Shown here piece by piece: positions 926-59,720 of a stretch of DNA of 62,214 nt. Source of the stretch: Gekko japonicus (taxonomy: Eukaryota). Under the pieces are notes generated by a model. The model made no database searches, was not told the DNA's origin, and saw only the letters and a program-made list of their open reading frames with translations. Positions within the stretch are counted from its first letter, which is position 1. Every line of letters starts with the position of its first letter. The translations under genes were made by a program, and so were the position numbers. The stretch covers positions 316,724 to 378,937 of the forward strand of contig NW_015176480.1 in the NCBI RefSeq assembly GCF_001447785.1, read 5' to 3'.

Positions 926-3900
926 GTAACTGGCTATTGAACCGCTTTCCAGACCCTTGGAACCCAGAAGACATGGCACAGGAGGAGATGCTTTTCTATC
1001 TTAGCTGCCACTGCATAATACCCAAGTCAGGGGTGGAGGGAACCATACCTGTCCTCCCATACTACCCACTTGGGGCAGCAAAATGCCTTGAGACAGCCCT
1101 GCCTTAAAGCTAAGCAGAAGGAAATAAACATGGCTTGCCTCCCTCTATTTTCCCCTTCCCTCTGCCGCCCCACCAGCCACAGCTGGGACACTCACCTGGA
1201 GCTTCCTTCTAGAGCTCGTTGTATTTCTTCCCACAATGGACCTTACTCCTAGTAATACTATAACTTGCAGTTGATGAGTGAAGTTGATGGGTAGTAGATT
1301 CAGGCTGGGTTTTGTGGCAACCTCAGTTCTATCACATTAAAGTCTGTTTTGCTTTTTTTTTGGGGGGGGGAATACAGAATTTATGCAGGTGATCATATGA
1401 AGGCAAACTGCACCACTTAGCACAGACAAAAAATGAAAGAAAGGATGTGATTCATTTATGTCCCCTATATCCCATGTGCACGAATTATTAGGGAGAAAAC
1501 ACATAGGAAGGCTAATGACTACAGTAAGTGTCTCCAAAGCTTGGAACTGGCTTCAAAATGTTATCATCTATCATCCTAATAAGCACTTAAGAAAGTAAAT
1601 CAAATACTATTAAAACACTTTTGACATGAAACTCGCATCCCAGAGTAATGCACAAACTCTTGCAATTTATAGTCTGTGCACGAGGACTGTGGGATAGAAT
1701 TGGTAGAAAATATACTGTGTTTTTACACAAAATATGTCACCTCTGCTGTTGTTTTCCATGTCTGTAAATGAAATGTGGCGCACTATGCTCTTTTTCTCCC
1801 CCTCCATATAAAAATATTGAACACACAAATAAGAAGTAATGTATCAGGATAGGTTCCTTTTCAAAATAAGTAATTAGTATATTTGTAAAATATTGTAAGA
1901 AGATTATTAAAAAGTAAATTAATATTCTGCAAAACTAATACTGTCTGTACAACAAGGCTGCTTTGTAACAATAGACAGTTATAGAAGAGTAGTCAGTAGC
2001 ACGAGATATTGATCCACTCATTCCGGGTTTGTTTGTTTTTCAAGTTTACTGTTAATTTTCTAAGGCAAGGTCAGTTACTTTAAAACTTTACACTCTTCTA
2101 AAGTCTGTACATGATGTAAGGTATTAATTGATGCTATGATTTATTTCCCAAAGTAGAAAGGGAAGAAATGTGCCCTGTAACTCCATATAAACTCTTGGGA
2201 AGGGAAAGCTATAATAATGCTAGTTAGTGCAGAGTTGGTGGCATTTGTGACCTGTTGAGCTAACCCAGTAAACAGATGCAGTGATGAAAAAAATCTACTC
2301 ACTGATAGAATGTTTGGGTGTTGCCTTTGACATGAGAAAACTAAATTGATAGAAATAAAATTATTCCCAATGAGTGAAAGATGTATACTCCTACATAAGA
2401 CTTATTCAAAGAAGAGAGCCACTTTAGGAGTTGGGTCTTACTACTTCAATCCCTGAAAAGGAAGTGAGGTTCTTTTCATCTGGATTTCCCCCTGGATTTT
2501 GGCATTCCAAATTTCCTGGTTACTCACAAAGTAGGAAAAATACGTTAGAAAATGGTGTCTCTCTCTCTGTGTGTGTGTTCCTTCAAGACCAAGTAAAGGA
2601 GAACAAGCCCATGGAACAGTGGCTCACTGTTTGCTGCACAGGGAGGCACAGTGAGATGCTGTCATATTACACATTTCATTTTTGCACCTTGAAGAGAAAC
2701 TAGACATAGCATCAATCTCCACCCAACCTCCGGTGGCAACTCTGTGTTTTGAGTAACATTCATTTCTGCCCTTAATTCGAACTTTTAAATTGCTATTTCT
2801 ATTAAACTATCCAGACAGATAAAGACTATGGTGCACACAGCATAGTGAAGTGAGTTGGTTTTGTGGAGATTACCATTTCTTTGTTCAAGTAAACATTTCA
2901 AGATTGCTACACTTTCTAATTGTGGGATGACACCTGAGGTGTACAAAACAAATTGGTACCTGAGTACTTCGATTTCTGTCTTGTAAAAACACTGCATACA
3001 TATTACATAATTTATAAGAGCCCCAGAATATTTGAGAGTAATTTTTTTTAAAAAAACAAAAAACCCTAAATTGCCATTTCATGGAATTCCCTCCAATTAT
3101 ACTGTGGTTTTGAGTGCTTCGGGTTTGGCAACGCTGTTGTTCTTTCATTGCCTGATTTAGCCTAAAGTAATTTTTATAGCAGAAGAAAATATCAACCAAA
3201 CTGCTGTGAAATGGGTCGTGAGTGATTATCCTGCCACTCTTCTGCTCCTGTACTGCACTGTAGCAAAGCCTGATGGAAGGGGCAAACTGATATTACTGTC
3301 TGTTCAGACTACAGAAGGGTTTTTTTAGTAATTAAAAAACTGACATCTCTATCCAGCTCTTAACTGAGTCTCCAAGTGCCCCCCACATGTGTCACAAGTT
3401 GAAATGGACACAATCCTCAGCTGCCAGTTTGACAAATTTTTGAGTGACATGGTCATAGGGAAACAGGGAAAGGAATTTGCTGCAAGAGAAGATGTTTATG
3501 AAGACTGACTGGACCAAAAGTATTCTATACTTCATCCCCACCCCTGAGAACAGAATGAAGAGCGGGGAAAGCATGAAGGAAGTGGGAGATTAGTGGAACA
3601 GATGAATGTGCAGGTGGGCTTCTCCAATTAGGGGGCAGAATGGTTGGGCATTGCCCCTTTAAAGACTTTGCTGGGCCTCAAATTATGGTTGTTCTCACAC
3701 AGCAGCAACTCTCCTTGCAGTTCTCATTGCTGCTGTAAATGCACAGACATTTACAGCAGCAACAGAGCATCCAAATCATGGTTTTCCCCACACTTTGCTT
3801 GACAGGAAGCCCCCTACATCCACCCCATGACACCAGAGGGATTTTCCTGGTTTTTTGCTGTTTTTTTTTTTAAATGGTAACTGACATATTGCTATAGTTT

Positions 3901-18668: not shown

Positions 18669-19384
18669 TGTCATGCCTGCCCCTGATGAAGCACCTGACA
18701 GCCAGGAGCACGTGGAGTTGGCACCACAAGCCCCTGAGGAACATCCAGAAGCAGAGACTTACAGTCAGGAACTGGCTCCTGCAGCAGAAGACTCTCTAAG
18801 TCTTGAGGAGGATAGAGCCTCCCAAGAGACACCTGTGCAGGATCAGGCTCTGCTTAATCCAAGTAATTCGCCACCCGACTCCCCGCCAGCTGTGACCAGG
18901 CTCAGGAGTCAACGAAGACAAGAGCTGAACGAAAGACTCTGGGCTGCACGCATGCGTGCAAGACGTTTGTTCAGCCCTGAGTTTTAGCAGAAGCTTGACC
19001 TTGCTCCCTGCCAGATAACAAGGTAATTAGCCAGCACACTATATCACCAAGCCTGCTGCTGGAAGGAATTTGTGCTGGCAACTTCGCTTGACAGGACCAA
19101 ACGCTCCATTTTTCCTGCTCCAGACTCCGTGAAACCCTTGTCAGTTTGATCCTCGGCTTTTGACCTTTGGCTCCTTGACACTCAGCATTGTTGACCCTGC
19201 TTTTGTCTCTGCGCTTATCTGGCTTCATTGTGATTGATGGACCTTGACTTCTGGTATGTCTGACGCTGGCTTTGGAAACTGATTTGGACTTGTTTAAACT
19301 GTGCTGCTTGATTTGCTCAGCTAAACCTTGGACTGAATTTGGACTTTGCTTGTTTGCCTCACGCTCCCTGGCCCAGCCGTGACA
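18669..19384 (+). mobile_element. Solo LTR (Gypsy/ERV-type), 716 bp
   Basis: TG..CA ends with short inverted repeat TGTCATG..CGTGACA. Perfect 5-bp TSD AGTGC (18664-18668 and 19385-19389). Interrupts a SINE. Confidence 0.88.
18673..18987 (+). other. Intact 104-aa ORF in LTR U3 (acidic body, PDSP, Arg-rich tail)
   Basis: Starts at the ATG within the LTR terminal TGTCATG. Same layout as the ORF at 58058-58411. Expression is unknown. Confidence 0.5.
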
Positions 19385-24362: not shown

Positions 24363-25939
24363 CTAGCCTGATACCCGTGCTTTGCTAAGGTATTTAACTT
24401 CGGTTAATCCAGTTATAATACTGATGATGTAAAATTTGAAATGTGTTGTAGGAATTCTAATGAAGAAGATTGTCGTGTAAAAAATGAAGTGAGACATACA
24501 TTCTTTTTTCCTCTCTACTGAAGGACCTCTCTGTAGACTGCTGGGGCGGGTTCCCTCGTGGCTTTAAGCACCCTGCAACCACTGCTGCACCTGACAGAAA
24601 ACCGCCTGTTAGGTGTAGGAGGTGGGGGGGGGGTGTTGGAAGCCATCAGAGAGGCTGGGCCAGCAGCATCACTAAGGCGTCCCTGATGGATTAAAGTACC
24701 CTGGTCCTGCTCCTACACCTGACAGACACCCACCTGTCTGGTGTTGTGTAGGATTATGTTTAAAGGCATCAGAAGGGTTGGCCAGCAGGAGGGCTAAGGC
24801 AATCTTGCTGAGCAAACCTCCCTGGTGGCTGTAAGCATCTACCTGTCCAGTGTAGGAGGAGGAGGGGGAGGAGTATTAGAAGCCACTGTGGGGACAGGGC
24901 CGGCAGGATCACTATGGCATTACTACTGGGGTGGGCTTCCTCGTGGCTTTAAGCACCCTGCAACCGCTGCTGCACCTGACAGACGCCTGTTAGGTGTAGG
25001 AGATGGGGGGGAGTGTGTTGGAAGCCATCAGAGAGGCTGGGCCAGCATTACTGCTAAGGTGATCCTGCTGGGGTGGCGTCCCAGTTGGATTAAAGTACCC
25101 TACTCCTACACCTGACAGACACCTGCCTGTTTGGTGTTCGGGGGGGATCATGTTTAAAGGCATCAGGTAGGCTGGACCAGCAGCAGGACTAAGGCAATCC
25201 TGCTGAGCAAACCTCCCTGGCAGCTGTAAGCATCCCACCTCCTCTCTTACACAGTGTAGGAGGGGGAGGAGTATTAGAAGCTACTATGGAGGCAGGGCTG
25301 GTAGGATCACTAGGGCATGACTGCTGGGGTGGTAACTCCCTCGTGGCTTTAAGCACCCTGCGACTGCTGCTGCATCTGAGAGACAACTGCCTGTCCAGTG
25401 TAGGAGGGGGAGGGGAGGAGTATTAGAAGCTACTATGGAGGCAGGGCTGGTAGGGTCACTAGGGCATTACTACTGGGGTGGTAACTCCCTCATGGCTTTA
25501 AGCACCCTGCGACTGCTGCTGCACCTGACAGACAACTGCCTGTCAGGTGTAGGAGGGCGGAGCATGTTTGAAGCCATAGGAAGGCTGGGCCAGCAGCTTT
25601 GCTTCACCTCACAGGCAGTTGGCCACTCCTGATTTACTCAACTGTCATTAGCTCTCTGTAGTCCCCTGTAACTGGTTTTTTTTTAATCTCAGAACACTGA
25701 ACTCTGCAGCTGACCAATCAGAGAGTGGGGGGTGCAAGGAGGCAGCATAGGAATCAAAGGGGGGAGCACATTTTATCTATTTTGACCCACTTAGGGGTCA
25801 AATTTCTAAAAATCCCTTCTTAGTGAGCACCTATGCCACGGTGGGAGCGCTCTCCCCAAATTTGGTATCTCTAGGTCCAGCAATTTGGCCTGGGTGTTGA
25901 TTTTACGGTGAGGGGACTTTCTTTTATATATATAGAGGA
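24363..25939 (-). mobile_element. Helitron-like non-autonomous element with internal minisatellite array
   Basis: The minus strand runs A|TCCTCTATATATATAAAAG ... agcaaagcacgggtatcaggCTAG|T, giving 5'-TC, 3'-CTAG, an AT target and no TSD. The interior ~24530-25600 has at least four diverged copies of gtggctttaagcaccctgc..gctgctgcacctgacaga..gtgtaggagggggg..gaagc. Confidence 0.7.
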
Positions 25940-50907: not shown

Positions 50908-51256
50908 CCCATGGGGACCAAGCTAATCAGTTCTGTAAGTGGTTGCTGTATTCCTTATTTATTGCATGATGTAAAGGAACAGGCTAGCAAGCCTTTCCTT
51001 GCCCCTTTTGATTGGATCCCTGGGAGGCCAGGAAAAAACCAAACATGGTTGCCCCAAGTGTGCTGGGGGAAGGGCTGAGGGAAAAGGGCACATTGCCAGT
51101 GAAGACTTGGGGCAACCATGTTTGGTTTTTTCCTGGCCTCCCAGGGATCCAATCAAAAGGGGCAAGGAAAGGCTTGCTAGCCTGTTCCTTTACATCATGC
51201 AATAAATAAGGAATACAGCAACCACTTACAGAACTGATTAGCTTGGTCCCCATGGG
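50908..51256. repeat. Perfect 152-bp inverted repeat with 45-bp spacer
   Basis: 50908-51059 is the exact reverse complement of 51105-51256, read base by base and mirrored by identical peptides on both strands in the ORF track. Confidence 0.95.
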
Positions 51257-57135: not shown

Positions 57136-58053
57136 ATACAGATACGTAGTTTTGTAATACAGATACGTAGTTAGTTATAGCTCTAAATACAATCATAAAT
57201 AAGTTTAGTAGTTTTGTTGTAGTTTCTTTTTAACTTAGCTATTTAGCTAGTGTTTATTTAAACTGGAAATATTATAACTGTCAAATTTATTATATTTGGT
57301 GTACTTTCTATATCACTGGTCTACATTTATATGTAAAATGGGGGGAAAGCCAGAATGGTGAACCCACTCAAGCACTCAGATATATAAGCAAATACAGTCA
57401 ATTTTATACTCAGGGACTGTATCCAAAAATATACAAAAATACATACAAGGCAAATAGCCAGAACCATACAATATCTCAGTGATAGAATAGTAGAACAATA
57501 CAAGATATAATGCTAATATAGCAGTGGACAATCATTCATTATAAAGCTTTCGCTTAATTTCGTATCAAGACTCCATCAGAAGCAAATCAACTTACACTGT
57601 GTTGTGATTTTTCTTGGTTTGTAATTGCACCTTTCTAATTTCTAAAAGCACCTCTTCTCAAGGGTTGCTAAAGTCAATGGCGGGACTAGCCCTCATAATG
57701 AGAAATCTTCAAATTACAACTTTTAACTGCTTCAATAAAGTTCTTAAGAGAAAAAGAATCTAAGAAAAAAATAAGGGCAAAAACTCTCAAAATGGCTTGA
57801 TGACATCTGTATACTATCTAGGAATAAGAAATATTGACAGAGTTGAAAACTGGTTGAAGCCTTTCCTCCCCTCCCCATTTGATCAAAATTTTACTAGATG
57901 ACATAAAACTGCACTTCTGGTTGTATAATGATTATTAGGAGTTAAGCTATTTCTCTTATTTTTTTTCTTATTTGGACTCTTTAATACCAGTTATAAACAG
58001 GTTTTATATAAGGACTTATGATTACATTTATTTTCATTATAACTGATATATGC

Positions 58054-58656
58054 TGTCATGGGTCCTGGCTCAGTCCAGTCTGACTATTCATCACATAAGG
58101 GAGAGGCACAGAACAACCCAGCCTCTTCTGGAGTCAGCCCAGAAGAGGAACCTTTGCCAGCACTTGAGAGAGAAGAGGCTCCAGCATCTGCACAGGAGGT
58201 GCAGCAAGGCAAAGAGCCTGAGGTACAGTTGGAGGAAGAGCCTGGTCCAGAGCCTGGCCCAGCATCCCCAGTTGGAGACACCTTGAGGCCAGATTCCCCA
58301 CTTAGCTCACTTGAATGTCCCAGACACAGGGCATTCCAACATCTGGATGTGCAGGTGAGAAGGAGGAGTGCCAGACTTCAGCTGTTGCAAAGGCAACATG
58401 AGGGGCTGTGAGTCTTTCCAGGTTGCCTCCCAGGGAAGGGAGGGTCCAGTTATAAGCAGCCATGTTCATCTGCCTTGGTGCGGAAGCAACCGTGCAATCT
58501 TGGACCTTGTTCTGGCTGCCAGCCTCTGCTCATCGCTCCTGAGAACTCTGATTGATCTCCCGGCTTTCTGACCCCTGGCACTGTTTCTCGGCTTGGTTGG
58601 GACTTTGCACCTAGCTTGGTATATTGTATTCATGGCAACTGGCCAAAGCCAGCACA
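58054..58656 (+). mobile_element. Probable solo LTR (~600 bp)
   Basis: Starts TGTCATG like 18669 and forms a GC-richer block in AT-rich DNA. TATAAG at 58451 downstream of the ORF. Ends ..cagcaCA. The TSD is only partial (TATGC/TATAT), so the right boundary is approximate. Confidence 0.62.
58058..58411 (+). other. Intact 117-aa ORF in LTR U3 (acidic body, PDSP, RRRSARL)
   Basis: Starts at the ATG of the terminal TGTCATG. Same layout as 18673-18987. Confidence 0.5.
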
Positions 58657-58859
58657 TATATTAAGTTTTGGTTACTCTAATAGAATGAAGTCTGGAACAC
58701 ATTAAAAAGATAAGAAGAAAGGAAAAGATGAAGATCAGGGCATTGTATAGGTTATGAAGGGAATATCATGCAGTGGCAATTCAAGTGCAACAATCTGAGG
58801 AAAGAACTCAGAGCAGCATTAAAAAATCTGAGGAAAGAACCTTCACAACCAAGCTTAAT

Positions 58860-59720
58860 TTCAGTAGATAAAATTCTTAGATATGAAGATCTTTTAGATG
58901 ATAATGGATTTCTAAAAATAAAGGAAGATTTAACAAAGTAAGGTGTTAATTTAGATTGGTGAACAAGGGTTCAAATTGAATCTAGATATATTAAAGATAG
59001 AAAATCTGGTTTTTATTTAGAACAATGTGCATTTGAAAAATTGTTATGTACATGTAATGATAACTTGATTAAGAAAATGTATGTATTTTAATGCAAGTGA
59101 AAATGGAGGATGAAGTGGTTAAAGAGTGTGTGATTAAATGGATTCAAAATCTAGGTTATAATATTGATCTTGCACAGTGGAGTAAACTGTGGAAAGTGAA
59201 TGTGAAAATGACCAAATTGGTTGCATTTAAAGAGAATCTGTATAAGGTGTTCTATAGATGGTATTTAACACCAGATAGATTAGCTAAAATGTACAAAAAT
59301 ATGTCTAATAGTTGCTGGAAGTGTAGAAAACATGTAGGTATGTTTTACCATATGTGGTGGACATGCGAAATTGTATGTAAATTCTGGGTTATGGTGCATA
59401 CATTTATACAGACAGTTCTGTAGACTTCAATACCTTGTCAATCAGAAAAGTTTTTATTGAATTGTATACCAGATGATTTTGACAAAAATAAAAGATATTT
59501 TATAATTCATGTAGTAACAGCAGCTATAATTTTATTTGCAACTTTTTGGAAACTTCCAACAATACCCTCTGAATAAGACCTAATAATGAAGACCACGGAA
59601 AGTGCAGAAATGTACAAACTTACTTTGATCTTAAAGGGCAAATGGAAGAAGATTTTGTTGGACTATGGACTCCTTTTTATGATTGGATAAGAAAGAAATA
59701 CAAAGATATGAACTTTTTGA
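58860..59720 (+). mobile_element. L1-clade LINE ORF2 C-terminal region
   Basis: KENLYKVFYRWYLTPDRLAKMYKNMSNSCWKCRKHVGMFYHMWWTC..FW (L1 C-terminal Cys-rich zinc knuckle). Confidence 0.88.

Follow-up and report, generated by a model that had tools for sequence, protein, structure and literature searches.

The CRM group A retrotransposons of plants encode a CR motif in their 3' LTR (PMC3059260, PMC3605345), and this motif has been described as a tether followed by a basic motif and a helix (PMC11302176; also PMC12786077). For the sushi-type chromoviruses the integrase site has been given as TGTYANR...CNTNACA (PMC3601003, Table 3). Short arginine motifs have been reported as structurally proven chromatin tethers in foamy virus Gag, LANA and IE1 (PMC9040877). 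In the HMGN2 cryo-EM structure RRSAR was resolved on the acidic patch of the nucleosome, and Dsup (RRSSRLTS) and Dot5 (RRSARIAT) are described as binding the acidic patch without SA (PMC12487698, PMC13347269).

Here we describe gecko elements in which an LTR-encoded integrase tail is added to an intact chromodomain, which is a variation on the CR-motif design, and in solo LTRs the tail is a neutral remnant. As in CRM group A, Pol passes the polypurine tract and enters the 3' LTR (at 27 of 27 family-C loci and at L267), and behind a tether of low conservation lies a conserved basic motif with its helix, the proposed targeting domain. In the plant elements, however, the CR motif replaces the chromodomain, whereas the gecko elements keep it and carry the tail behind it. 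The motif is TRARA[RK] in plants and RRSAR or RRxxAR inside a predicted helix in the gecko, and the two are likened by layout. With the sushi-type vertebrate chromoviruses the gecko elements share the domain order, the TGTYANR...CNTNACA ends, the 5-bp duplication and a G-rich tract. They differ from them in a tail of about 100 aa, with an acidic linker and a basic helix, for which this genome and gecko-named proteins were the only sources. Most of 15 related Pol-like proteins (11 of them named frog or fish) end at most about 60 residues from the chromodomain core. Among 149 newly listed library proteins 10 had an in-frame GG-x-V junction, and the B-type tail was matched by only one of the 149, from gecko. 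Like foamy virus Gag, LANA and IE1, these are mobile or viral elements with a short arginine-motif tether (proposed in the gecko), but theirs sits on Gag or viral nuclear proteins and the gecko's putative one is LTR-encoded and part of the integrase. No earlier report of such a tail was found in the open-access literature (repeat databases, supplementary alignments and most subscription journals lay outside the scope of the search).

The locus lies in a stretch of 62,214 nucleotides from Gekko japonicus (contig NW_015176480.1, positions 316,724 to 378,937 of the forward strand), called the window below. A solo LTR of 603 bp was found at 58054..58656 on the plus strand and assigned to family A, likely a sushi-type chromovirus (Ty3/Gypsy). 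Its termini are TGTCATG...CAGCACA. In the window copy the 5' integrase site TGTCATG (58054..58060, +) fits the sushi TGTYANR fully and provides an apparent start codon, and the end CAGCACA fits CNTNACA at six of seven positions. Its own target-site duplication is degraded, the left remnant TATGC (58049..58053, +) and the right copy TATAT (58657-58661) matching at 3/5 positions. The family search brought up 946 candidates at first look and scored 40 matches, of which the 39 others were 84-91% identical to the window copy. The copies are spread over many contigs of the fragmented assembly. As 42 of the 51 distinct two-ended copies carry a target duplication of 5 bp that matches at 4/5 or 5/5 positions, the copies are solo LTRs. 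The element with its termini, the size of the family and these duplications bear out the LTR call made in the earlier note. When gag/pol and a partner LTR were looked for about 7 kb either side of 58054-58656, none was found. A TATA-like TATAAG, presumably functional, is located at 58451..58456 (+), 40 nt 3' of the stop of the U3 frame, and R of family A likely starts at 58478..58490 (+), as judged by likeness to a family-B site that pairs with its own primer-binding site. Only 1 of 293 RNA reads over 57300-59300 was at least 99% identical to the window copy and the RNA depth was zero in the flanks (57702-58036 and 58707-58840), giving no sign of transcription of this copy in raw, unstranded reads of one study, whose sampled animals may differ from this genome.

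Tandem or closely duplicated family-A LTRs were also seen at L210/L211 and L133 (476 nt and about 2.2 kb apart), with no gag/pol between them. Elsewhere the window contains a perfect inverted repeat of 152 nt around a spacer of 45 nt (50908-51256), either a young palindrome or an assembly artefact, and an imperfect tandem array with 120-150-nt spacing (24552-25590). A 110-aa frame at 59091-59423, to which RNA reads from other copies map, presumably resembles the Cys-rich end of a LINE ORF2.

The U3 frame of the window copy (58058..58411, +) opens at TGTC-ATG, encodes 117 aa followed by a stop, and is likely the C-terminal tail of a Pol/integrase, a link that for family A is drawn from its relatives. 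Residues 1-87 (58058..58318, +) form an acidic, Pro-rich linker, which is predicted to be disordered, diverges between families and contains PDSP (58289-58300, +); residues 1-85 hold 17 D/E and 14 P and only 4 K/R. Residues 88-115 (58319..58402, +) form a predicted basic helix, the part of the frame that is kept between families. This C-terminal part holds RRRSARLQ, within which RRSARL (aa 102-107, 58361-58378, +) equals six of the eight residues of the HMGN core. When the peptide was shuffled 200,000 times RRSARL turned up in 3 of the shuffles, and the six frames of the window hold a single RRS[AS]R; thus the motif is not a chance effect of composition. The earlier note had described the frame, its acidic E/P body, PDSP, RRSARL and the downstream TATAAG accurately. 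It had also expected frame and motif to recur among the copies of the family, and they do: the ATG is at LTR position 5 in most copies, the frame is open to the family stop in 36 of 61 and RRSARL is exact in 28 of 59. In AlphaFold2 models of the A and B types of tail, both resting on shallow alignments, the motif is enclosed in a 27-28-residue helix that begins right after the SP patch, with a pLDDT of 93 for aa 101-110 of the window frame. The SP motif thus opens the predicted helix, and helix capping would account for it as well as the phospho-switch suggested earlier. Searches with the tail peptides in Pfam (E 0.1), PDB sequences (E 10) and the ESM Atlas gave no match.

Read-through of Pol into the LTR was found in family C, a young sister family detected via the family-B-linked chromodomain, with an LTR about 73% identical to that of family B. 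At all 27 family-C loci the Pol frame leaves the chromodomain, crosses the polypurine tract (GGDS) and enters the LTR as V-M, where it runs on for 107 aa, the M being the ATG of TGTC-ATG. Four other loci beside these (L070, L073, L074 and L075) were out of phase. One full-length copy, with 99.4% identity between its LTRs, encodes a Pol of 1304 aa whose end lies within the 3' LTR. This Pol holds RT, RNase H, integrase, SH3 and chromodomain (PF00385 at Pol 1129-1176), and the order of the element is gag-PR-RT-RH-IN-SH3-chromodomain. In run X8 every bin of the family-C pol-to-U3 region, like the element as a whole, has RNA reads, and in these unstranded data from one study the depth is higher downstream of the stop codon, at the expected beginning of R. 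A very young chromovirus family (L215, L076-L102) has many copies with an open 1304-aa Pol. Among 68 older chromodomain-linked LTRs 54 start with TGTCATG and 14 start otherwise. The common start position of the LTR frames is explained by Pol read-through together with the sushi integrase site TGTYANR. Since this site fits the LTR start and 14/68 LTRs start otherwise, the ATG is an internal residue of Pol and the frame lies upstream of the promoter. The check proposed in the earlier note, continuity of the frame with integrase, was thus positive in sister families, at the 27 family-C loci and, for the A type, at L267.

The companion LTR in the window (18669..19384, +) is a solo LTR of family B, from the sister subclade, and is inserted in a SINE with a perfect AGTGC duplication. 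The search for this family gave 1290 candidates, and its LTR termini fit both sushi sites, TGTYANR and CNTNACA. Its 104-aa U3 frame (18673..18987, +) is a homologous Pol tail of the B type, with RRxxAR, and ends in SPEF. That the two LTR families share a peptide, as had been claimed, holds for homology at the peptide level, but the basic motif of family B is RRxxAR and not RRSARL. A search for G-runs before the family-B LTR start gave two copies joined to gag, protease, RT, RNase H, integrase and chromodomain (L069 and L070), and in both the LTR frame is out of phase with the chromodomain. The primer-binding site of family B (L069:4176-4187) has its complement within its own LTR, about 30 nt past the TATA-like box, an arrangement which we take to resemble that of self-priming elements (Tf1 mechanism). 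A second, different chromodomain Gypsy element on the minus strand of L069 (about 1200-3700) adjoins the family-B element. The B-type tails end in a conserved S-P-[ED]-[YF] just past the basic cluster, a possible kinase site, the conservation being partly circular since these columns were used to pick the copies.

On the basis of homology to the tails of chromodomain-linked relatives, the family-A U3 frame is very probably the leftover C-terminal tail of a chromovirus integrase, with family A itself having had such a layout. LTRs flank a chromodomain-integrase gag-pol in families B and C, and other A-type families are likewise linked. An A-type tail was found behind the chromodomain at 9 of 95 distinct linked loci, and in all nine the Pro/Ser patch, the arginine run, the leucine spacing and an RRS[AT]RL-like end recur. 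At L267 a stop-free frame of 171 aa leads from the end of the chromodomain to the basic motif, and L227 and L228 have chromodomain and motif in one frame, with stops. With an ungapped profile of the nine tails, whose windows were chosen with a motif-like pattern, the two window frames ranked first and second of 1277 six-frame segments and each outscored all of its 1000 shuffles. Without the six motif columns the profile still fitted (P 0.004 for the window copy and 0.0004 for L002). In an HMM search with the same nine tails the window frame was absent from the top 8 window hits. In a tree built from 42 SH3-chromodomain stretches, of which this genome supplied 36 and frog or fish 6 (three chosen loci were dropped for short hits and some A labels were set by eye from partial tails), the tail types fell on two sister branches, with support of 96/89 for A, 88/77 for B and 96/84 for both jointly. 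All chromodomain-linked tails come from one genome.

The internal region of family A was not found in three pattern searches, in 99 LTR-bearing loci or in the extended flanks of 10 copies, and three protein searches from the integrase end were negative in the part of the hits examined. The family-A 5' junction was likewise not found in the pattern searches and LTR-bearing loci. Gypsy pieces beside L008, L014 and L320 were considered as internal region and belong to other elements, and a self-priming pattern mostly matched the reverse strand of the LTR itself. In 68 older linked copies the LTR frame was in phase with the chromodomain in 26 and in the other two phases in 25 and 17 (P 0.23). There is no phase signal in these old copies, and therefore the direct evidence of read-through is limited to family C and a few A-type copies.

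A basic segment of about 28 residues is under codon-level purifying selection between families, and the linker diverges. For the B type the test comprised 34 windows in 21 groups, from which 4 out-of-register loci and the columns used for picking had been removed. Over 27 codons in the 21 groups the identity by codon position was 0.57/0.69/0.40, with pN 0.34 vs pS 0.77, and positions 1-2 exceeded position 3 in 25 of 27 columns. Triplets past the stop gave 0.42/0.40/0.39, with no periodic pattern. Hydrophobic residues of the B type are near-fixed at roughly helical spacing (V 20/21, L 21/21, L/M 21/21, A 18/21). The A type, in five groups including family A, gave 0.51/0.55/0.35, and 0.47/0.51/0.33 without the motif columns. 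The codon-level selection foreseen in the earlier note was thus detected as protein-level purifying selection on the basic segment between families. Within family A, both shared indels inside the ORF were in frame and none of the 6 outside it was (P 0.036), and shared variants were weakly enriched at third positions (14/29, P 0.10). Rare variants, taken as mostly post-insertion, were neutral, with 84 synonymous vs 80.6 expected and 207 missense vs 206.3 expected. Stops numbered 11 vs 15.1 expected (P 0.18), and 5 vs 10.2 expected (P 0.06) in 29 copies picked by DNA. The purifying pattern between families together with the neutral rare variants indicates that the peptide is selected in replicating elements and not in solo copies.

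The likeness to HMGN proteins concerns RRSAR, which is typical of family A, and the presence of an acidic region in the same polypeptide. The acidic region of HMGN proteins is C-terminal. In the family-A tail, by contrast, the acidic part is N-terminal, SA is lacking and there is no Pfam match; its motif lies inside a long predicted helix as part of an integrase, and the serine is missing in the sister subclade. SA never follows RRSARL (0 of 59 family-A copies), and the invariant octapeptide RRSARLSA is accordingly not present. The arginine spacing of RRSxR is found in family A, and the B subclade, which lacks the serine, shows RRxxAR, K, R or Q standing in place of R and mostly E in place of S at the position of RRSAR. 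Common to both subclades are the arginine spacing and the hydrophobic pattern, not RRSAR. As Dsup and Dot5 bind without SA, its absence does not exclude binding. The acidic-patch binders compared here are short hairpin or V-shaped peptides, not a long helix. Judged from its sequence, the tail is not a member of the HMGN family, and by analogy it may work as an HMGN-type anchor in one subclade. The proposal of an HMGN mimic is thereby narrowed: RRSAR(L) is typical of one subclade, but the missing SA, the sister subclade without serine and the long predicted helix speak against the mimic as proposed.

In the mechanism that we propose, the full-length RNA includes the 3' U3, and translation of Pol would yield an integrase whose C-terminal end consists of chromodomain, acidic linker and basic helix. 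The arginine-rich predicted helix would be a second chromatin tether for the integration complex. While the chromodomain reads methyl-lysine, the linker would let this helix contact the nucleosome (DNA, the H2A-H2B acidic patch or both), and RRSAR would be a possible arginine anchor on the acidic patch. That the tail acts as a chromatin tether, with a linker that lets the helix contact the nucleosome beside the chromodomain, is the reading we lean towards. Anchoring on the acidic patch specifically, which is argued by analogy, we regard as rather doubtful.

The main rival, to which we give a clearly smaller but real chance, takes the basic helix of the Pol tail as a nuclear-import signal or an RNA/DNA-binding arginine-rich motif and not as a nucleosome reader. 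The integrases of yeast Ty elements have import signals at the C-terminus, and Rev is an example of a helical arginine-rich motif. A long R-rich predicted helix suits this explanation, as does the finding that the subclades share the arginine spacing and hydrophobic pattern but not RRSAR. Against it, the A-type groups keep RRSAR-like residues even at a DNA identity of only 36-64% over 22-codon windows, which is tighter than a charge patch needs, an argument that is weak since the motif columns were used to pick the A-type copies. Distinctly less probable is a structural role of the helix in oligomerising integrase or in packing against Gag or the chromodomain, where the SP motif would cap the helix. 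The near-fixed B-type hydrophobics at roughly helical spacing would fit such a role, but the helix is strongly basic, and most of the 15 related Pol-like proteins end near the chromodomain core, so that the tail is dispensable for the core fold.

A stand-alone HMGN-mimic peptide translated from the LTR's own ATG is highly improbable. The ATG is at LTR position 5 in most copies, 36/61 frames are still open and stops are slightly under expectation (P 0.18; P 0.06 in the 29 copies). However, the frame lies upstream of the TATA box, its ATG belongs to the integrase site and is missing in some linked LTRs, rare variants are neutral, and the window copy had 1/293 reads at 99% identity or more and no depth in its flanks (57702-58036 and 58707-58840). 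On the sequence, the solo-LTR frame most likely makes no protein, being upstream of that TATA box. The independent LTR-encoded peptide put forward in the earlier note is not supported, its start being explained by Pol read-through and the integrase site and the solo copies decaying neutrally. Equally improbable and largely refuted is an origin of the frame by chance or as a side effect of constraint acting on U3 promoter elements at the DNA level: U3 carries promoter elements and its purine-rich DNA has few stops, but conservation is three-base periodic in the Pol frame with saturated synonymous sites, and past the stop there is none.

The identification of these frames as integrase tails also explains a recurring false signal, as thousands of solo LTRs with a ready ATG and a frame of about 110 codons can enter gene models. 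In a predicted Gekko japonicus KIAA1468 protein (P0003) the first approximately 61 residues are 67% identical to the family-A LTR frame; this protein start is either a gene-model artefact or an exonised LTR start. The gecko tail provides, in two sequence variants, an animal counterpart to the plant CR motif, and bears on how LTR elements choose insertion sites and on what that motif binds. If the proposed mechanism is true, a patch-binding tail together with the chromodomain would make a two-point chromatin reader, and the sister subclades with RRSAR and RRxxAR would be a natural pair for studying how insertion is steered.
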